Below, one piece after another: positions 1-8,889 of a stretch of 31,522 nt of DNA; the first letter of the stretch is position 1, and the number at the start of each line of letters is the position of its first letter. The stretch lies in assembly GCA_033762295.1 (NCBI GenBank), contig JANRLW010000053.1:1-31522 (forward strand), read 5' to 3'. The position numbers and the translations under genes were made by a program. This DNA comes from Capsulimonadales bacterium (GTDB lineage: Bacteria > Armatimonadota > Armatimonadia > Armatimonadales > Armatimonadaceae). A model generated the notes under the pieces. It did not search any database and had not been told where the DNA came from. It was given only the letters and a program-made list of their open reading frames with translations.

Positions 1-747
1 GCCCGAAGACCGGATGCCACTGGTAGGTGGTCGCAAGATACCACCTATTAATAAATCGTTTCAATCCTCATCCGGCCCGAAGACCGGATGCCACGCTCCG
101 GGGACAGGCGTTTGTAGCCCGGTGCCTTAGTTTCAATCCTCATCCGGCCCGAAGACCGGATGCCACAGGATGACCACGTCCGCGCCGATCAGCGTAGCGG
201 TGTTTCAATCCTCATCCGGCCCGAAGACCGGATGCCACTCGACAACCTCCTGTTTCAGTTGAACCAAAAACTGGTTTCAATCCTCATCCGGCCCGAAGAC
301 CGGATGCCACGGAATGTCACTCGGCGCGAAACGGCTACGGAATGGTTGTTTCAATCCTCATCCGGCCCGAAGACCGGATGCCACGCGGACAGTAGTCGAT
401 CTGGTTCGCCACCAGATCGAGTTTCAATCCTCATCCGGCCCGAAGACCGGATGCCACTCGATGTCCAGAACCTCCGAAAAACACCCGTTACCTGTTTCAA
501 TCCTCATCCGGCCCGAAGACCGGATGCCACCCAACGAACAGGCTACCGGTCTGCTGCTTGACGAGTTTCAATCCTCATCCGGCCCGAAGACCGGATGCCA
601 CAGGGGGGCAAGACGTTCTATGCGCCGACGGTCAAGCCGTTTCAATCCTCATCCGGCCCGAAGACCGGATGCCACTCGCAGGAAGACGTTCAAACCGTCG
701 CCGGGGAATGGTTTCAATCCTCATCCGGCCCGAAGACCGGATGCCAC
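1..747 (-). CRISPR. CRISPR array, 37-bp repeat GTGGCATCCGGTCTTCGGGCCGGATGAGGATTGAAAC (minus strand), truncated by window start
   Basis: Ten identical full repeats start at 58, 130, 202, 274, 348, 421, 494, 565, 639 and 711, plus a partial repeat at 1-20. Spacers are unique, 34-37 nt. The repeat has a hairpin (CATCCGGTC-TTCG-GGCCGGATG) and a 3' ATTGAAAC end, which gives minus orientation, the same as the cas genes. Confidence 0.99.
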
Positions 748-832: not shown

Positions 833-1708
833 TCAGCCCTCGATGAGGCGTGTCAACGCGACTTTGCCTTCGTAGTCGTCGGGGACACGCGGACCGGCGA
901 CGACGTAGTCGTCGAAGCGGCGCGGGGTTTCCACCCCGTCCTTTTTGCGGACGACGAGGGTGTCGAAGAGTTTATGAGCCGGTGCGTTACCGAGTGGGGT
1001 TTCGTGGGTGAAGACGTAGAGTCCGCGACAGGCCATCATGCCACGGGCGGCGGAACGGTCGACGTCCCACATCATTTGAAGTGCGTCCCAGAACAGGGTC
1101 AGGTCGTCTGCTGTCACGCCGGTTTGCGCGGCGAGCGCCGCAGAGACGAAGCCACGGGCGACATAGAGGGCGTACGGCAAGAGCGTTTTACGGCCCATGG
1201 TCCGGTTGTCACCGCTCTGAGCCGCCGCTTCCTTGGTGGTAGCGACGGCCATGCGGGTGATGGGGAGGTCGAGCGGGGCGACAGGGTCGATGCTGCGTCC
1301 GAAGGTGAACTGAATGGGGCCGCGCACCTGCCCGGCGTTGGACTCCTTCAGGGACATGACAGCTCCGAAGAGGCGGACGTCATAGAACAGTTCGCACATC
1401 TTGCGGCGGGCATCGGCGACGGTGGCCTTGCTGCCGAGAGCGTCGTAGGCCCGCTGATGCTGCTGGGCGAGAACGGCCTTTTCCTGAACGTAGATCTCGC
1501 TGCCGGGCGCACCGGGTCGGGCGGCGGCGACGTAGTTGCGGACCTTGCGCTTGAGGCAGACATCGGTCACGATACCGTGGCCGGTCTGCGGGTCGGTGCG
1601 GGGCAGGTTCCCTGCGTCGGGGTCGCCGTTGGGGTTGCCGTCAGTGACGTCGAAGAGCAGCAGGAAGTCGTGGCGTCGAGCCGGGTCGGTATGGAGAGTG
1701 ACGGACAT
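833..1708 (-). CDS. cas7c: Type I-C CRISPR backbone protein Cas7/Csd2
   Basis: Motifs [57 protein letters not shown] are typical of Csd2. Confidence 0.97.
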
Positions 1709-1720
1709 GGTGTTACCTTT

Positions 1721-2209
1721 CTATTCCTCGTTCGCGGTGTCAATGGTGTCAATGGTTTCATTGATGTCGCTGGTGTCATTGGTGTCGGATGCGGTGTCAT
1801 CCGCGGGTTCGTCGAGACCGTCGGTTTGCCGGAGGTTCCGGATTTCGCGACGGACGCGCGCGCGTTCGGCGTAGTAGCCGAGGGCAAAGCTGCCCTGTTC
1901 GCGGGCGGAGAAGTAGCCGGGGAACTCGGTTCCGATCGGCTCCATGATTTCCGCGAGCGTGTCCTGGAGACGGCTATGGGAGCGGGCGTAGCGGCCACGC
2001 CGGATGGCGGGCAGGTGTGCCTGTTTGGCCATGCGGAGGAGGGCCGGAAAGACGGCACGGGGTGTGGTGGAAGCGCCGCCGTAGTAGCGGTCCGTGAGGG
2101 TGACATTGGCCTCGCGTTCGAGGGCCATGTACTGGATGCGCTCCAACTGGTAGAGCAACCGACCGCAGAGGTAGGCTTTCTCGGTGTTACTAGGTTCGAA
2201 ATCGCTCAT
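1721..2209 (-). CDS. cas11c: Probable internally translated small subunit Cas11c (C-terminal part of cas8c)
   Basis: In-frame ATG (MSDFEPSNTEKAYLCGRLL) preceded by GGAG, just before the conserved AYLCGRL helical domain. Internal translation is established for I-C systems. Confidence 0.65.
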   Translation of the reverse strand: MSDFEPSNTEKAYLCGRLLYQLERIQYMALEREANVTLTDRYYGGASTTPRAVFPALLRMAKQAHLPAIRRGRYARSHSRLQDTLAEIMEPIGTEFPGYFSAREQGSFALGYYAERARVRREIRNLRQTDGLDEPADDTASDTNDTSDINETIDTIDTANEE

Positions 2210-3559
2210 GGTTCGGACTTTCTCCGCATCGAAGCGGCGGGATTGGGAATCGTAGGAAAGCAGCAGTTTGAGCAGAGCGGCGCGTCGATAGGAGACGTGC
2301 TCGCGGCGTTTGGTCGGGCCGTTTTTCGGCGGGTCGTCGCCGATGATGCAGCGACGGACGACGATAGGTAATAAGGCATCGGGCGGGGGTGCGTCATTGA
2401 GCGCCGTTTCGGTCATGGCGGCGTACAGGTAGTTCGGGACGTCCTTGCGAACGCGGAAGGCGGCTTCGACGGTCTGCCAGGTGGCGAGTGGTCGAGAAGC
2501 GTCGTCACCGTTCGGGCTGACGATCCGGGTGCGTTCGAACCAGAGCCGTTGTCGTTCGTAGAGATCGGCGACGGTGAGATGCAGGGCGGACCGGAGGGCG
2601 ACGCGCCCACCGCTGTGCGAGGAGAGGCCGAGGATATGGAACGGGGCGTCGTCGGGCAGAGCGTGGATGCGTTTACCGAGGCGTGGTCCGTCGAGCAGAG
2701 CGCGGACGGCGGTGGGATCGGGTTCGGGAGCGAAGAGGTGTAACGTGACCTCTCCGGCGGGCGACCAGAAGACGTATTTCACACCGCTATCCCGGTCGCC
2801 GACGGTGACACTATGGCGTTGGGACTGGAGCAGGGCATTGAGCGCCTTGGCGACGTGCTCTCCGGCTTCACGACTGATGGGCGCGGAGTATTCGCTGAGG
2901 TTGTACGACATGAAGGCGTTGACATTGAACGACGAAAGGGGGGCACCGGAGGTATTGGCACCGGGAACGCCTTTGAGGGCGAGCGGCAGTTTGGACTCCA
3001 CGAGAGCGGGCTGGCCGGTGACGAGGCAGGTCATGGAGCGGGCTTTCCGATCGCGGGTGTGTTCGGCCCAGAAGTCGCGGACGACCTCGATTTCATGGAG
3101 GAGCCGTCCGCGCACACGGAATCCGATCAGGTCGTTGCTTCTGAGATCGGAAGGGAGAGGGAATTCGGGGGCGATCGGATTCCAGCGATCGAGGAAACGA
3201 ACGACGGGTTCCAGTGCTTCGACACCTGTCTGTTCGTGACAGAGGTGGACGAGTTCGCGGAACGCCTTGCGAGTGTTCTCGTTCCGGGTTTTGCCGGGGG
3301 CGGTCTTGCCGTCGTCGACGCCAAAGACATACTTGGCGTTATCGACGAGGAGAATGGGCGAAATGTCGGAGGAGCGTCCGAGGTAGGGCAGAAAGGTACG
3401 TCCGGCGGCGTTTTCGGGATAGACGATACCGGTATCGGGATCGATATCGAGGATCAGTCGGAGCGGCTGAAGCGCGTACATGGGCGGGGGCAGCGGCTGG
3501 CCATCGTGAATCTGACCGAAGATCGCTTCGGCATCGTGGTAGAGGGATTGCAGGATCAT
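1721..3559 (-). CDS. cas8c: Type I-C large subunit Cas8c/Csd1
   Basis: MILQSLY start, CLVTG, SFNVNAFMSY, AYLCGRL, TLTDRYYGGASTTP, EQGSFALGYY; lies between cas5 and cas7; ATGA overlap with cas5. Confidence 0.95.
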   Translation of the reverse strand: MILQSLYHDAEAIFGQIHDGQPLPPPMYALQPLRLILDIDPDTGIVYPENAAGRTFLPYLGRSSDISPILLVDNAKYVFGVDDGKTAPGKTRNENTRKAFRELVHLCHEQTGVEALEPVVRFLDRWNPIAPEFPLPSDLRSNDLIGFRVRGRLLHEIEVVRDFWAEHTRDRKARSMTCLVTGQPALVESKLPLALKGVPGANTSGAPLSSFNVNAFMSYNLSEYSAPISREAGEHVAKALNALLQSQRHSVTVGDRDSGVKYVFWSPAGEVTLHLFAPEPDPTAVRALLDGPRLGKRIHALPDDAPFHILGLSSHSGGRVALRSALHLTVADLYERQRLWFERTRIVSPNGDDASRPLATWQTVEAAFRVRKDVPNYLYAAMTETALNDAPPPDALLPIVVRRCIIGDDPPKNGPTKRREHVSYRRAALLKLLLSYDSQSRRFDAEKVRTMSDFEPSNTEKAYLCGRLLYQLERIQYMALEREANVTLTDRYYGGASTTPRAVFPALLRMAKQAHLPAIRRGRYARSHSRLQDTLAEIMEPIGTEFPGYFSAREQGSFALGYYAERARVRREIRNLRQTDGLDEPADDTASDTNDTSDINETIDTIDTANEE

Positions 3560-4290
3560 TCGGCGTCCTCCGGCGTGGGAGCGTTCGGCCGCGGGCGGGA
3601 GAGCCAGGGACCGGAGAGTGTTTCAAGCAGGGCGTATTGTGCATCGGGGATGGTCACGCGTCCGTCGATGACTTCGGCTTCGAAGAAGAGGGGGGCGTTG
3701 GCATCGCTATCGGCGGCGAAGGCGATGTCGAAGAGCATGAGGGAGGGCGGCTGTCGGAAGGGGGCAGGGCGGAGGGAGCCTTCGTACTGCAAGGGGTGGC
3801 AGAAATCGGCGGCGAATTCGCGACACCCGAGGGCGGGGCGGTGGAAGCACCGTCCCTGTTCGACGCGCCGTCGGAACTGATCGCGGAATTTGGCCGGGGT
3901 ATCGGTGACATCGGGACGGACGACAATATCGGCGAAGAGTCGATAGGCGACATCGCGGAGGGCGAGGGTAAGGCGCTGGGTTCGTTTGTCGACGATGTCG
4001 ATGGGGTTCAGCTTTTCTCGGCGCGGATCGGGCATTTTGTCGGTGACCTCGTTGCGCAGGAAGGAGATGTACTGCACGGGTTTCAGGAGATGGATCTCAC
4101 GGACGCGGTACCGAAACTCGGGTTTCCAGAAGATGGCTTCGAAGATACCGCGAGCGGCACCGGGGGTGGGGAACGGATAGGTAACCCGTTCGGCTTTGGC
4201 CTCGGGGCGAGTGAAGCAGGCGTAGTCTCCCCAGACAACGACTTCCACGGGCGGTAGTTTGGGGATATTTTCGGATTCGGTCGAACTCAT
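3556..4290 (-). CDS. cas5c: Type I-C Cas5c (Cas5d), pre-crRNA processing endoRNase
   Basis: VWGDYACFTRPEAKAERVTYPFPTPGAARGIFEAIFWKP, GRCFHRPALGCREF; AAGGAG RBS. Confidence 0.97.
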   Translation of the reverse strand: MSSTESENIPKLPPVEVVVWGDYACFTRPEAKAERVTYPFPTPGAARGIFEAIFWKPEFRYRVREIHLLKPVQYISFLRNEVTDKMPDPRREKLNPIDIVDKRTQRLTLALRDVAYRLFADIVVRPDVTDTPAKFRDQFRRRVEQGRCFHRPALGCREFAADFCHPLQYEGSLRPAPFRQPPSLMLFDIAFAADSDANAPLFFEAEVIDGRVTIPDAQYALLETLSGPWLSRPRPNAPTPEDAE

Positions 4291-4406: not shown

Positions 4407-4439
4407 AGGTTACAGTCGCTGAGTGCAGTATTTCTGCAC
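4407..4439 (-). promoter_or_regulatory. Palindrome plus -10 promoter element upstream of cas5 (copy 1)
   Basis: Minus strand GTGCAGAAATACTGCACTC-N8-TAACCT; a near-identical element lies at 7562-7594. Confidence 0.65.
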
Positions 4440-4474: not shown

Positions 4475-4840
4475 TTAGGGACGTTGGGGAGGCAACGTCA
4501 GCACGGAGAATCTGGTCAATTCGCGATGGAGATCGTTCGCCTTACCCGATAGACCGGGCTCTACAGCAGGAACGAACAGACCGTTGTTCCTCTGTGCGAC
4601 AGCGATCAGAGTTGCCCATCTGTGTCTTGCGGCGGAAGTGTTCAGGCTGCTCTCAGTTTCCACCACAACGATGATATTAAGTTCGCCGATACGGCAGCAT
4701 ATATCAGGAGAAACGCCTTTGATTAGCGATGGGGGCGAAAACACCGCCGAGTCAACGACTTGCAGATCAGTTGCGCCCTGACGAAGCAGTTCATTGACGG
4801 TCGTTCGAATCAGACCGTCACGGGACACTTGTTTTTTCAT
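4475..4840 (-). CDS. Orphan 121-aa protein with PD-(D/E)XK-like signature, inserted between cas3 and cas5
   Basis: Strong AGGAGG RBS before ATG (MKKQVSRD...). SPDICC...IIVVVETESS resembles the PD...ExE core of small restriction-fold proteins. Lower GC than neighbours. Confidence 0.6.
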   Translation of the reverse strand: MKKQVSRDGLIRTTVNELLRQGATDLQVVDSAVFSPPSLIKGVSPDICCRIGELNIIVVVETESSLNTSAARHRWATLIAVAQRNNGLFVPAVEPGLSGKANDLHRELTRFSVLTLPPQRP

Positions 4841-4919
4841 TTTCCCTCCTAAAAAGGACCATTGGTTAACGGAGGGGTAATGCGATACAATTCTGTGCAT
4901 TTCTGGACCGCACTACCCG

Positions 4920-5025
4920 GTTCATGCCCCGCAGAAGCGCCAACTTCTGCGGGTTTTTGTTTGCCTCCCATATTGCCGCGATGCGATTCTACGTTTCGAT
5001 CCTCGTCGCTTGAAAGCAACGCCTT
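4920..5025 (-). ncRNA. Putative crRNA-like regulatory RNA (pseudo-repeat, ~35-nt spacer, hairpin)
   Basis: 4993-5023 minus reads GGCGTTGCTTTCAAGCGACGAGGATCGAAAC: a 7-bp stem plus 11-nt handle AGGATCGAAAC (array: AGGATTGAAAC). The next hairpin begins one spacer length later. Confidence 0.6.
4928..4962 (+). terminator. 10-bp hairpin with T-tract on + strand; also candidate second pseudo-repeat on - strand
   Basis: CCCGCAGAAG-CGCCAA-CTTCTGCGGG followed by TTTTTGTTT. Confidence 0.6.
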
Positions 5026-5123
5026 TAACCAGATGCTATTACCGACGGAAGTAATGTATTCACCTTCCATATTTCACGTGAGACTCTACGAAGTTTTACA
5101 ACCGTCTTCCTGGTTTCAAACGG

Positions 5124-5152
5124 ATATTATCGAACGACCTCAACGGTGTCAA
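5124..5152 (-). promoter_or_regulatory. Sigma70-type promoter immediately downstream of cas3
   Basis: TTGACA (5152-5147), 17 nt, TAATAT (5129-5124). The -35 overlaps the palindrome GTCAA-TCC-TTGAC. Confidence 0.7.
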
Positions 5153-5167
5153 GGATTGACGCAAAAA

Positions 5168-7519
5168 TCACCGAATTAGTTTTTCCGGCGAGTGCGGGCG
5201 GACACGGTCGTTGGGATCGTGCAGGAGCGGGACGCCGGTTTTGGGGTCGTAGGAACCTTCATAGACGATCAGGCCGGGGACGGGTTCGGACAGACCGTCG
5301 GCCTGGTTCGGGTAGAGTTGGACGCAGAACGGATGGAGTTTGCGCCAGTCGGAGCGTGTCAGACCGCCGCGCCGGTCGGCATCACCCAAGAGGGTATCGA
5401 GATCGAGAGACAGGTCGACCGCAGCGCGAGCGAGGACGGTGACAGTATCGTCGGGAATGAGGCGCATTTTTCGGGCGACTTCGGGAAAGTCGAAAGCGCG
5501 GATGTCGGGCATCACCCTATGGGCGTCGGTGGCGTCGTTGAGTTCGCGGATCATTTCGCGGAACCAGGCGGTGACGTTTTCCGGATCATCGAAATCGAAC
5601 GCTTCGCCCCGGTCGGCGGCGCGGCGAAGGGCGTTGACGGTTTTATCTCGCGCTTTTTTATAGATCGGATCGGAAGGAGTACGGTCTTCGGCAGGGCGGA
5701 AGAGGGTGACGAGGCTGTCCTGCCAGGGGCGTCTGCCTTCGCGGTTGCATCGACCGGCGGCCTGAATCAGGGACGGGAGCGGGGCGAGGGCGCGGAAAAG
5801 TCGGGGAAAGTCGACATCGACGCCCGCTTCGACGATGGAGGTGGAGATTAGGCGAGTCGGCAGACCGGCAGCGAGGCGCGCGCGAACGTCGTCAAGAACG
5901 CGGCGGCGATGTCGCCCGCAGAGCAGAGTTGACAGGTGGAAGACGGACGGGTCTGTACGATCCGGGTCGAGCGCATCGACGAGTTCGATCGCCTGTTTCC
6001 GGGTGTTGACGACGCAGAGTACGGTCGGCTCGGAGCGCAGTCGTTTGGCGAGCGCGGAGGAATCGAGTTCGGGCAGGTCGGTTTCAAAGCGGACGCGGCG
6101 GAGGCGACGAAAGTGGGGCGCTGGGTCGCCGACGATCTCGACCGGACGGGGATCGAAGCCGCGGAACCAGGGGGTCCGTTCCTCAAAGGCGGGCTGTGTC
6201 GCCGTGCAGAGAACGACGGTGACGCCGAAGGCGGCGGCGAGCGTTTTCAGAGCTTCGATGAGCGGGCGTAACAGGCCGGCAGGCAGAGATTGGACTTCAT
6301 CGAGCAAGAGAACGCTATCGGCGATCCGGTGTAGTTTACGGCAGCGGGCGGGGCGTTGAGAAAACAGGCTTTCAAAGAGTTGCACCTGGGTCGTGACGAT
6401 AAGAGGCGCATCCCAGTTTTCGGCGGCGAGGCGGCGACGGAGGGCGGTTTCTCGACCGTTGTCTGTGGCGTCATCGGAGGGGGTATCGATTTCCGCGGCG
6501 GAGTGGTGTTCAAGAACGATCCCGGTGTTTTCGCCGAAGATTCCTTCGAACACGGCGGCGGTCTGGTCGAGGATGCTGGTGAACGGGGCGGCATAAATGA
6601 TCCGCCGCTTGCCGTGGCGGACGGCATGCTCCAGCGCGAAGGCGAGGGAGGAGCGTGTTTTTCCTCCGCCGGTGGGTACGGTCAGAGTGAAGACGCCGGG
6701 GCGCTCAACCGCGCGGGCCAGGCAGTCGGCGAAGACGGCGCGCCGCACCTGATGGACGGGATTTTCGCCGTTTCCGGCGGCGTCCGCTTCGGCGCGAAGT
6801 CGTTCTTGGTCACGTAGGAAGGCGGCGCGGAGGTCGGCGAGCGGCGGTGATCGGCGCGTTGCTTCCTCGCGTTGTCGAGCGGTATCGGGGGAAACATGTT
6901 TTTCGGTATCGAGTGCGTCGGCGTCGACCAGACAGGAGAAAACGAACCGCAGGTACATTTCGGCGGCTTCGCGAGTTCGAATCGCAGGTGGGTAGAGGAC
7001 CCCCGGATCGGGAAACGGGGGGACGAGAGCAGGGGAGACACTACGGGCGCGTTCGACGAGGGCGGGGAAGGGCAGGACAGCGTATTGCTGACGTTCCTGT
7101 GCGCCATCGCGGGTGTCCTGCCGATTTTTCATTCCTCCGTGATGGCCGAAGAGGACCTGTGCGAGCGGGTCGCCGAAGGCCGCGTTTTCCGCGTGCGCCA
7201 GTAACGCGCCGGTCTGTTTGTGGGGAGCGGAACCCGGTTGCGGTTTCTCGGAGATTTCGCCGCGATCAAACCGGAAGCACTGTCGCAGGTAGTTTTGAAA
7301 TCCGTCATCGAACTTGCCGAGATCATGGAGAAGGCCAACGTAGCGGGCGGTGGCGGCACCGCCAAAGGGAGTGGCAAACGATTCGGCAAGGTGGGCGACG
7401 GCGAGCGTATGGTCGACGAGATCGTGCCATTCCGGGTTATCGCGGGAGGGGGTATGGGCGACGAATTGGTCGGCGTCCGGCAATGCCTGGGTTGATTTCG
7501 AGAAAAGATAATCCGACAT
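5168..7519 (-). CDS. cas3: CRISPR-associated HD nuclease/helicase Cas3
   Basis: HD domain (HDLVDH, LLHDLGK, LVDADALD), Walker A PTGGGKT, LEHHS, DEVQ, EAGVDVDF, QAAGRCNREG. Start placed at MSDYLF (7519); exact start uncertain. Confidence 0.96.
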   Translation of the reverse strand: MSDYLFSKSTQALPDADQFVAHTPSRDNPEWHDLVDHTLAVAHLAESFATPFGGAATARYVGLLHDLGKFDDGFQNYLRQCFRFDRGEISEKPQPGSAPHKQTGALLAHAENAAFGDPLAQVLFGHHGGMKNRQDTRDGAQERQQYAVLPFPALVERARSVSPALVPPFPDPGVLYPPAIRTREAAEMYLRFVFSCLVDADALDTEKHVSPDTARQREEATRRSPPLADLRAAFLRDQERLRAEADAAGNGENPVHQVRRAVFADCLARAVERPGVFTLTVPTGGGKTRSSLAFALEHAVRHGKRRIIYAAPFTSILDQTAAVFEGIFGENTGIVLEHHSAAEIDTPSDDATDNGRETALRRRLAAENWDAPLIVTTQVQLFESLFSQRPARCRKLHRIADSVLLLDEVQSLPAGLLRPLIEALKTLAAAFGVTVVLCTATQPAFEERTPWFRGFDPRPVEIVGDPAPHFRRLRRVRFETDLPELDSSALAKRLRSEPTVLCVVNTRKQAIELVDALDPDRTDPSVFHLSTLLCGRHRRRVLDDVRARLAAGLPTRLISTSIVEAGVDVDFPRLFRALAPLPSLIQAAGRCNREGRRPWQDSLVTLFRPAEDRTPSDPIYKKARDKTVNALRRAADRGEAFDFDDPENVTAWFREMIRELNDATDAHRVMPDIRAFDFPEVARKMRLIPDDTVTVLARAAVDLSLDLDTLLGDADRRGGLTRSDWRKLHPFCVQLYPNQADGLSEPVPGLIVYEGSYDPKTGVPLLHDPNDRVRPHSPEKLIR

Positions 7520-7561
7520 GTGCGTTTTCTTTTTAGTGGAGGATGCCAGGCATCCCATCTC

Positions 7562-7594
7562 AGGGTAGCGGGGGAGAGTGCAGTATTTTCGCAC
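7562..7594 (-). promoter_or_regulatory. Palindrome plus -10 promoter element upstream of cas3 (copy 2)
   Basis: Minus strand GTGCGAAAATACTGCACTC-N8-TACCCT, same spacing as the copy at 4407-4439. Confidence 0.65.
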
Positions 7595-7596
7595 TC

Positions 7597-8580
7597 TCAG
7601 AATTCGTTGTAAATCGTTTTCAGACGGTGGAGTTCCTGGCGGATCGTCTGGCGTAGTTCGGCAGGTTCCATTACCTCGACTTCCGCACCGTAGCCGAGAA
7701 TCCAGCGGGTAAGGTCTTCGGTGAGGGCGACATGCAAGGTGATGATCAGTCCGCCGTCGTCCTGTTCGTGATTGTGCTGGGTCGCATGGTAGCGGCGTTC
7801 CCGAATCCAGACGGCCTGTCGCGCGGAGAAGCGGAGACGTACCGAGACCGGATTACCGCCTCGCTGGAGTTGGAACGCGGTTTCAAGGTAGGAACGGATA
7901 TCGAAGTCCGGAGGAACCGTGAAGGTCTCGTCGTCGGGCAGAAGTCGCCAGTGTCGGATGCGGGGGAGAAAGAAGTGTCTCAGGTCCGTGCGCCGTTCGC
8001 AAAAAGCGATCAGATAGAGTTCGCCACGCCAGTTGAGGAGGGTATAGGGCCGAACGATCCGTTCGGTGATCTCACCTCGGTGCGCTCCGAAGTAGGTGAT
8101 ATCGAGTCGACGACGTTGTTCAAGAGCGTGGCGGATGTCTCGCAGCAGTTCTTCAGGAATCAGGAACTCGTCCGCGAGGCGAATGCGACCGGTCAGGATT
8201 TCCTGTCCGTCGGAAGCAAAATCATCGTGCCGGGGCAGGTCGCGCAGGTAGGGAGAGAGTCGGACGGCGAGTTGGCGGACGAGGGCCGCATCCGTCGGCG
8301 GCAGGTAGCTCTGAGCGGCAAGAAGGGATTGCCGGAGGGTATTCGCTTCGGTTTCGGTGAGAGCGAGGTAGGGCAGTCTGTAGGTGGGTTCCGTGTAGTA
8401 GTAGCCGCGTCGGGCGGAATGGAAGACGAGCGGTGCGCCGATGCGTTGCCGCAGATGGCGGATATCTTCCTTCGCCTGTCGTTCCCGGATGCCGAAGGTT
8501 TCGCACAAGTCCTTCCAGTGGGGGTAACGGCGCTCACGAATGCGGGCATCCAACCAATACAATCGTTCGAGGCTTGACAA
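7597..8580 (-). CDS. HTH-WYL-WCX transcriptional regulator (PafB/PafC/DriD-like)
   Basis: N-terminal wHTH (DLCETFGIRERQAKEDIRHLR, RRGYYY), WYL (RIVRPYTL..RGELYLIAFC..R..LRHFFLPRI), WCX (WILGYGAEVEVMEPAELR). Likely TTG start at 8580 with AGGAG RBS. Confidence 0.92.
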   Translation of the reverse strand: MSSLERLYWLDARIRERRYPHWKDLCETFGIRERQAKEDIRHLRQRIGAPLVFHSARRGYYYTEPTYRLPYLALTETEANTLRQSLLAAQSYLPPTDAALVRQLAVRLSPYLRDLPRHDDFASDGQEILTGRIRLADEFLIPEELLRDIRHALEQRRRLDITYFGAHRGEITERIVRPYTLLNWRGELYLIAFCERRTDLRHFFLPRIRHWRLLPDDETFTVPPDFDIRSYLETAFQLQRGGNPVSVRLRFSARQAVWIRERRYHATQHNHEQDDGGLIITLHVALTEDLTRWILGYGAEVEVMEPAELRQTIRQELHRLKTIYNEF

Positions 8581-8889
8581 TTTTAAATCTCCTGTCAGGT
8601 TGTTTGCCGAGGGATCGTTTTTTTCCTGTGGAGAACGGCGTTCCGTTGTAACGACCGAGAGAAGAACCGACAACCGCGCCGTGTCCGATGTGCGGGATGA
8701 GGCATAAAAGGTGAAGCGCCGGGATACAGTTGTGGTAGGAGGCACGAAGTGGCGACGACGTTTGGGGAGCGGAACGGGCTTCGTTCGGAACTGGTAGGCG
8801 GGATTCCGGCCTGGCGACGTATACCTCGCTGGTGGCGTTAACCCTGGCTTGCGGCTGCGATATGACGATTTAGCGGGCGACGGAACGGG

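Follow-up and report, generated by a model that had tools for sequence, protein, structure and literature searches.

A small PD-(D/E)xK-fold gene between cas3 and cas5c of a type I-C CRISPR locus in Armatimonadota, preceded by a guide-like RNA that matches its own promoter region

We analyzed a 31,522-nucleotide stretch of DNA from a Capsulimonadales bacterium (contig JANRLW010000053.1; here called the window), which on its minus strand carries, in this order, a WYL gene, cas3, a 327-nt gap, an open reading frame (ORF) of 121 amino acids, cas5c, cas8c, cas7c, and a CRISPR array. An earlier note on this DNA had placed an ORF of low GC content with a PD...VVVET pattern between cas3 and cas5, directly downstream of a promoter, a target site, and a pseudo-repeat, and each of these elements was recovered. 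The ORF (4840-4475, minus strand) is flanked by cas3 and cas5c, encodes P45-D46 and V58-V59-V60-E61-T62, and has a GC content of 0.53 (GC3 of 0.55) compared with 0.63 to 0.65 (GC3 of 0.70 to 0.81) in the four cas genes; promoter, target, and pseudo-repeat all lie upstream of it. The features of the locus are as follows.

7597 to 8745, minus strand: WYL/WCX transcription factor (domain search)
7562 to 7594, minus strand: second palindrome copy with TACCCT, before cas3; candidate WYL-activator promoter
5168 to 7594, minus strand: cas3, given as the longest ORF; actual start probably at 7519 (PF22590/PF18019)
5124 to 5152, minus strand: predicted sigma-70 promoter (TTGACA at 5152-5147, TAATAT at 5129-5124, spacing of 17)
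5059 to 5092, minus strand: guide target (TTC PAM at 5092-5090, protospacer from 5089)
4993 to 5021, minus strand: pseudo-repeat 1 (7-bp hairpin at 5021-5004 and 11-nt handle at 5003-4993)
4958 to 4992, minus strand: 35-nt spacer of the crRNA-like RNA
4928 to 4953, minus strand: hairpin 2, likely a degenerate second repeat or guide 3' end
4875 to 4918, minus strand: hairpin 3, the conserved leader hairpin; its 3' arm overlaps an anti-Shine-Dalgarno (anti-SD) segment at 4877-4871
4845 to 4850, minus strand: Shine-Dalgarno (SD) sequence AGGAGG (read from the sequence)
4475 to 4840, minus strand: 121-aa PD-(D/E)xK-fold gene (translation, homologue alignment, structure model)
4407 to 4439, minus strand: palindrome (4439-4423) with TAACCT 10 nt later; candidate WYL-activator promoter for cas5c-cas8c-cas7c
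3556 to 4290, minus strand: cas5c (PF09704)
1721 to 3559, minus strand: cas8c (domain search)
833 to 1708, minus strand: cas7c (domain search)
1 to 747, minus strand: CRISPR array with 10 full 37-nt repeats, continuing past the contig end

With a period of 71 to 74 and a repeat of 37 nt, the array has spacers of 34 to 37 nt. It apparently resumes on G000:C76:1-1620 with 16 repeats and a distant degenerate repeat, and no cas1, cas2, or cas4 was recognized by eye among the ORFs adjoining the array there. A short array with a different repeat lies at G000:C54:6031-6247, with no cas gene recognized nearby. A second set of I-C effector genes, arranged as cas8c-cas5c-cas7c and without cas3, is found at G000:C22:10874-14096; there, a single full repeat stands just before the cas5c start and may be a Cas5c cut site in the mRNA.

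For the 121-aa ORF, use of an alternative in-frame ATG at 4900 would lengthen the product to 141 aa, and the alignment with homologues supports the start codon at 4840 instead. The strong ribosome-binding site claimed for it is present as a motif (AGGAGG at 4850-4845), but its strength is qualified by predicted pairing with the anti-SD segment, which leaves it a mean unpaired probability of 0.28.

A word search with the single ORF sequence returned only itself, while an exhaustive search yielded two genuine distant matches, P0004 and P0005 (P0002 and P0003 were discarded as repeat-rich chance matches). A profile built from these three sequences found matches in 6 of 301 genomes of the phylum, with syntenic homologues in five other loci at E values of 1e-12 to 1e-18. 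The improved profile matched 9 of 401 phylum genomes and 7 of 71 genomes of the class, and five further new loci came from metagenomes (L033 is a duplicate of L012 and L029 to L032 are duplicates of genome loci; L039, with no family-profile match, cas gene, or leader, was dropped). The ORF thus belongs to an unnamed family of about 122 aa in Armatimonadota. Far from being the orphan described in the earlier note, its gene adjoins type I-C cas5 or cas3 in all 17 distinct loci (15 directly before cas5, 2 before cas3), the outcome of the gene-neighborhood survey which that note had proposed. Since cas7c occurs in 101 of the 401 phylum genomes and the family gene in 9, the latter is a minority accessory of type I-C. 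Searches with eight members gave no family above the cut-off in Pfam, PADLOC, or NCBIfam; none in PHROGs exceeded the cut-off either, where P0005 had one weak, unnamed match, and phage collections, plasmid collections, and viral contigs held no family match. Look-alike clusters outside Armatimonadota, mostly in Bacteroidota, were found in the Atlas (score, 0.95), the linkage to cas genes being counted in Armatimonadota.

The protein was modeled from 16 aligned sequences with a pLDDT of 89.6 (a single-sequence model was unusable, with a pLDDT of 40), and the model bears out the predicted restriction fold: it is of the PD-(D/E)xK type, and nearly all of the top structural matches have the same fold. 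The solved structures matched are restriction-like domains, with AF1548 (Z of 8.7) first, followed by NucS (8.6), XisH (7.8), the Can2/Card1 nuclease domain (7.5/6.7), and Hjc (6.6), over 92 to 98 superimposed residues at an rmsd of 2.8 to 4.3 and 4 to 16% identity. Foldseek also put this fold on top, but without a match at E of ≤0.001. The family profile aligned with Hjc at PD and at E-x-K, where the family has E-x-E (E of 0.12), and P45-D46 of the window protein falls on the PD of both.

Typical members carry PD, E-x-E, His-Thr, and Gln in 10 of 10 alignment rows covering those positions, and dN/dS ratios of 0.16 to 0.28 in the 11 closest family pairs indicate that they are under purifying selection. 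The window protein retains D8, D46, E61, and W75. A suspected substitution of its catalytic Glu is borne out by Val59, which stands where 10 of 10 typical rows have the first Glu, so that V59-x-E61 replaces E-x-E and the second acidic residue of an active PD-(D/E)xK site is missing; R7, D30, A70, and R74 occupy the family His, His, His, and Gln positions. Because the first Glu, three His, and the Gln, i.e., five family-conserved polar residues, are lost, the window copy is probably nuclease-dead. It groups with the L008 copy (P0004), which lacks the PD itself, on a supported long branch (97/97). Both have open frames, with 35% identity and long branches. In simulations, a neutral frame persisted through 0.95 changes per site in 24 of 2,000 runs; the frames being still open, a description as a disarmed relic is incomplete unless the loss was recent. 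Judged from the sequences, either a recent loss or a remaining noncatalytic use would account for them.

Damage or active-site loss affects 5 of the 17 loci (the window, L008, L013, L028, and L038), which fits a costly gene without proving it, and broken copies from assembled metagenomes may be assembly errors. In L028 (G301, 7850-8300), a CRISPR array leads straight into the family gene, which lacks its 5' part, and the end of the last repeat encodes the codons at the PD position. In L038 (3441-4229), the N-terminal half of the family gene is fused in frame to cas5c. In P0006, on a 1.2-kb contig, a WYL N-terminal HTH is joined to the last third of a P0005-like protein, which suggests that WYL lies directly upstream in that lineage or that the contig is misassembled.

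Upstream of the gene, two promoter-like sites were found in 1,051 bases scanned (0.6 expected), and of the 16 upstream regions displayed, 13 have a TTGACA located 249 to 324 nt ahead of the start codon. The target lies about 25 to 60 nt downstream of the predicted start site. The pseudo-repeat handle AGGATCGAAAC at 5003-4993 is identical to the end of the array repeat at 10 of 11 positions, and the spacer behind it matches the target at 9 of 10 informative seed positions, a value equaled in 2 of 3,000 simulated regions. Genome-wide, four TTC sites reach 9/10, namely, the window target and three others, so the significance of the pair derives from its location. The target and the spacer behind the pseudo-repeat form a guide-target pair with a TTC PAM, which predicts repression by Cascade.

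The 14 loci that have upstream sequence and no array in it have in common a spacer, two hairpins, and a handle located 163 to 194 nt ahead of the start codon (L028, with an array in place of the leader, did not enter the guide tests). Handles were chosen by similarity, that of L012 by eye, and the first 11 nt of each spacer were compared, with the PAM left free, with the 230 nt upstream of the handle of the same locus. The PAM of the best site was TTC in 12 of 14 loci, GTC in one, and unconvincing in L038. Guides scored 8 to 10 of 10 in their own region in 13 of 14 loci and 4 to 8 in other regions except those of close kin; the loci are related, and both these guide statistics and the gap statistics below overstate their independence. 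Position 6 is mismatched in most loci, and according to the CRISIS preprint text (10.1101/2024.12.27.630466) this position does not pair. Because spacer and target covary across loci, Cascade likely represses the gene's unit via the guide, as far as can be judged from sequence comparison. The L013 leader (G049) has two tandem targets with TTC and TTT PAMs, 28 nt apart and both upstream of the promoter.

Beyond the seed, the window guide pairs over about 30 nt (to position ~33) only if bases 12 and 18 are left unpaired. With DNA that lacks partners for these two bases, 12 of 15 distal positions match versus 4 in the ungapped register, and this extension was equaled in 1 of 20,000 random cases. 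When gaps were placed freely, at least 5 extra matches were gained in seven loci with a valid target, and a multiple of six lay inside 12 of the 14 gap ranges of these loci (5.3 expected; P = 1.6e-4). The count is 11 of 12 without one close relative and 8 of 9 in L026, L034, L055, and L072 alone. L038, which has a handle but no convincing target, was left out and would make it 13 of 17; this exclusion and the gap threshold were chosen after the window and L008 had been seen. An extra target base takes the place of a missing one in L011 (at 12 and 24) and L025 (near 10 to 12). With indels limited to sixth positions, the score was matched by at most 1 in 300 controls in 9 of 18 loci; L037 did better in other phases, eight loci were without clear effect, and the phase comparison in this test favors phase 0 by design.

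These data suggest that Cascade may tolerate the gain or loss of a single base at its kinks, a tolerance that selection may use to hold the promoter without cutting. A high-throughput study of I-E Cascade by Jung et al. in 2017 may reportedly cover indel tolerance in vitro. A literature search returned no description of the sixth-position pattern. The word "bulge" is missing from the main texts of 10.1101/2023.03.03.530964 and 10.1101/2024.12.27.630466, whose figures and supplements could show gaps, and "indel" and "gap" are likewise missing from the text of the latter. Should Cascade tolerate the loss or gain of one base at each sixth position, ungapped searches would underestimate the length of regulatory self-targets, the rules on off-targets of type I tools would need an added term, and guides bulged at the kinks could repress without Cas3 cutting; the natural guide-target pairs make the pattern directly testable.

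Between guide and gene, 10 of 14 loci have a stem of 8 to 13 bp whose end lies 31 to 36 nt from the start codon (the script chose the wrong stem in L026). RNAalifold gave no consensus on a first, poorly aligned set of 13 sequences, and the structure of hairpin 3 comes from a subset of seven. Its outer pairs are changed on both sides in 6 of 9 cases, in an alignment that had been adjusted to the model and in which one sequence is a reverse-strand duplicate. The seven-locus model recovered the hairpin in four unseen loci (L009, L011, L013, and L038), missed the window, L008, and L025, and made 9 weak matches in 151 genomes, near the chance number; Rfam gave no match near the gathering score for hairpin 3. 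The loop contains a handle-like word (8/11 in the window), and hairpin 3 may serve as a translation switch or represent a third pseudo-repeat. In a test of the anti-SD switch, deletion of the 5' arm lowered access to the SD in 7 of 14 loci and did not in the other 7. A leader peptide in hairpin 3 was rejected as not common to all loci by eye, as was a type III toxin-antitoxin system, since hairpin 3 also precedes the HTH gene of L055 (E of 0.03) and no Rfam antitoxin matched. Hairpin 2 (4928-4963, plus strand) resembles an intrinsic terminator on the plus strand and by eye is not so conserved in relatives.

The leader is also found with other cargo or none. L054 has promoter, handle, and a TTC target matched at 17 of 18 positions but no cargo gene. 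In L055 (G053, minus strand, 3285-3503), the full leader including hairpin 3 precedes a 73-aa HTH_3 gene, and the guide is paired at 28 of 33 positions with gaps at 17-18 and 24. The leader therefore needs no toxin, and its slot is swappable. Among 20 control I-C loci without the gene, 14 lack a credible handle upstream of cas5, and in one an array occupies that place. L057 (G145, 5500-6226) has four handles in its cas3-cas5 gap; by eye, its opposite strand shows a hydrophobic, basic-tailed ORF of about 40 codons with an SD, which resembles a type I toxin peptide. In L061 and L066, a handle stands ~36 nt before cas5 and ~75 nt before the cas5 match, and a 36-nt spacer equivalent would cover the cas5 ribosome site.

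A second regulatory layer may act on the cas genes. With two mismatches allowed, the palindrome with TAnCCT 10 nt later matches three sites in 5.16 Mb, of which two are at this locus, and in L008 (1942-1958), also beside a WYL gene, the palindrome follows the family ORF. The copies before cas3 and cas5c are putative promoters activated by WYL and would make the Cascade genes less dependent on the guide-controlled promoter. As in PafBC-type WYL activators (PMC11804915), the motif lies just upstream of a -10 element beside a WYL gene; here it is a palindrome that matched no known site, and binding is putative.

Taken together, we favor, with confidence evenly balanced against doubt, a reading in which the gene is cargo of the I-C operon behind a guide matching its own promoter region and is likely repressed by Cascade, the family is predicted to be a toxic nuclease released when Cascade is blocked, and the window copy likely no longer cuts. 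By analogy with published I-C work, Cas5c would cut at the pseudo-repeat and Cascade would load the guide. The loaded complex would bind the TTC site ~25 to 60 nt into the transcript and block transcription without calling Cas3. Pairing in five-base blocks over ~30 nt, with one-base indels at flipped-out sixth positions (a pattern seen in the alignments, with a presumed function), would keep Cascade on the DNA while the R-loop stays imperfect. Once Cascade is lost or an anti-CRISPR acts, guide and cargo would be derepressed, as would the Cascade genes through read-through, and intact relatives of the window protein might then cause nucleic acid damage and cell arrest. The toxin reading fits the family better than the window copy, as judged from the residues retained. 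An active safeguard in this genome, as the earlier note had envisaged, is disfavored because the five conserved polar residues are replaced and because a separate WYL-type promoter for cas5 seems to lie downstream of the ORF; here, the safeguard would be disarmed, with cas3 and cas5c perhaps transcribed from WYL-dependent promoters.

Three other readings were weighed against this one. That the ORF is no gene, or a long-dead remnant, would suit its low GC3 and the word search without a near relative, but is very improbable given syntenic homologues at E of 1e-12 to 1e-18 in five other loci, a confident fold, and conserved leader spacing; the ORF is a real gene. A rather doubtful account takes the leader as plain Cascade autoregulation (CreR) and the gene as a coregulated, nontoxic accessory or regulator, with the nuclease-dead branch of the window and L008 kept for binding of nucleic acid or protein. 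It draws on the HTH gene of L055 and the empty slot of L054, on the well-supported long branch (97/97) with open frames, and on the layout of most loci, in which only ~100 nt and a hairpin separate the gene from cas5, so that the Cascade genes probably share its promoter. Against it, typical members retain the full acidic site under purifying selection, few polar residues are common to the window and L008, and 14 of 20 control loci lack both leader and cargo, so neither is needed for I-C function. The window protein itself could still be an active toxin via D46, E61, and perhaps E63, or act by binding without cutting. D46 and E61 are retained, the frame is open, the predicted fold is intact, and the still long guide-target pairing suggests that repression still matters; the five replaced polar residues, the sister copy without PD, and the location of E63 in a variable column, modeled in a helix, make this option unlikely. 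Our preferred reading of a guide-controlled cargo gene can be extended to a wider proposal, which we put forward tentatively and would sooner expect to fail than to hold: regulatory I-C guides would have evolved self-pairing over nearly the full spacer through one-base bulges at Cas7 kinks, a "bind but do not cut" code that searches without gaps overlook; the swappable slot of Armatimonadota would most often hold small nuclease toxins of a new anti-anti-CRISPR family; and the further conserved leader hairpin would add Cas5c-dependent translational control.

The architecture of cargo regulated by a mini-array, as in CRISIS, is already known, and the unit is predicted to work like CRISIS or CreTA. 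The leader shows what is described for crlRNA mini-arrays: a hairpin with an 11-nt handle, a PAM-flanked partial match near the promoter, and a mismatch at position 6. In CreR/CreA autorepression (Liu et al., 10.1101/2023.03.10.532045), a degenerate mini-array likewise has a spacer partly matching the cas promoter; the available text mentions I-C examples once and, unlike here, describes no protein cargo of the restriction-fold kind. The mini-array cargo of Shmakov (10.1101/2023.03.03.530964) is alike in its place after the mini-array and before the effector genes, in a target in the promoter region upstream of the cargo, and in having relatives with a leader but no cargo as well as empty ones; the cargo hotspots of I-D in the same main text match the swappable slot found here. 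That cargo is described for I-D, "I-C" being missing from the main text, and consists of toxin-antitoxin pairs and regulators, in contrast to the restriction-fold gene here, beside which no cognate antitoxin or phage sensor was seen at the loci analyzed.

Closest is type I-C CRISIS (Shu et al., 10.1101/2024.12.27.630466), whose preprint text likewise describes a non-cas gene between cas3 and cas5c, a pseudo-repeat with a hairpin and an 11-nt handle, TTC/TTA PAMs, and mismatches at positions 6 and 12, and proposes release by anti-CRISPRs. Toxicity upon derepression and activity against phages are CRISIS traits. The layouts differ. In CRISIS, a repeat unit follows the cargo, whereas here the guide precedes it, with the handle 163 nt before the start codon, and no repeat unit was seen by eye between cargo and cas5c (4474-4291). 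The CRISIS start site lies 37 to 46 bp downstream of the target, whereas here the target is downstream of the predicted start, the sole consensus promoter upstream of the gene preceding it. None of the ten CRISIS systems described in the preprint text is a single restriction-fold protein of ~120 aa, and PADLOC, Pfam, and NCBIfam, searched with eight members for homology to a named CRISIS protein, gave no match above the cut-off. Because the CRISIS layout was not found, we file the unit as a new variant of guide-regulated cargo. The fold itself is shared with AF1548, NucS, XisH, Can2/Card1, and Hjc, but here it forms a stand-alone domain without a sensor, and the E-x-K of PD-(D/E)xK nucleases contrasts with E-x-E in the family and V-x-E in the window copy. 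With this locus, an unnamed family of predicted small nucleases joins the genes that CRISPR systems apparently carry as guide-RNA-controlled cargo, in Armatimonadota, a phylum outside the coverage of the related papers found.
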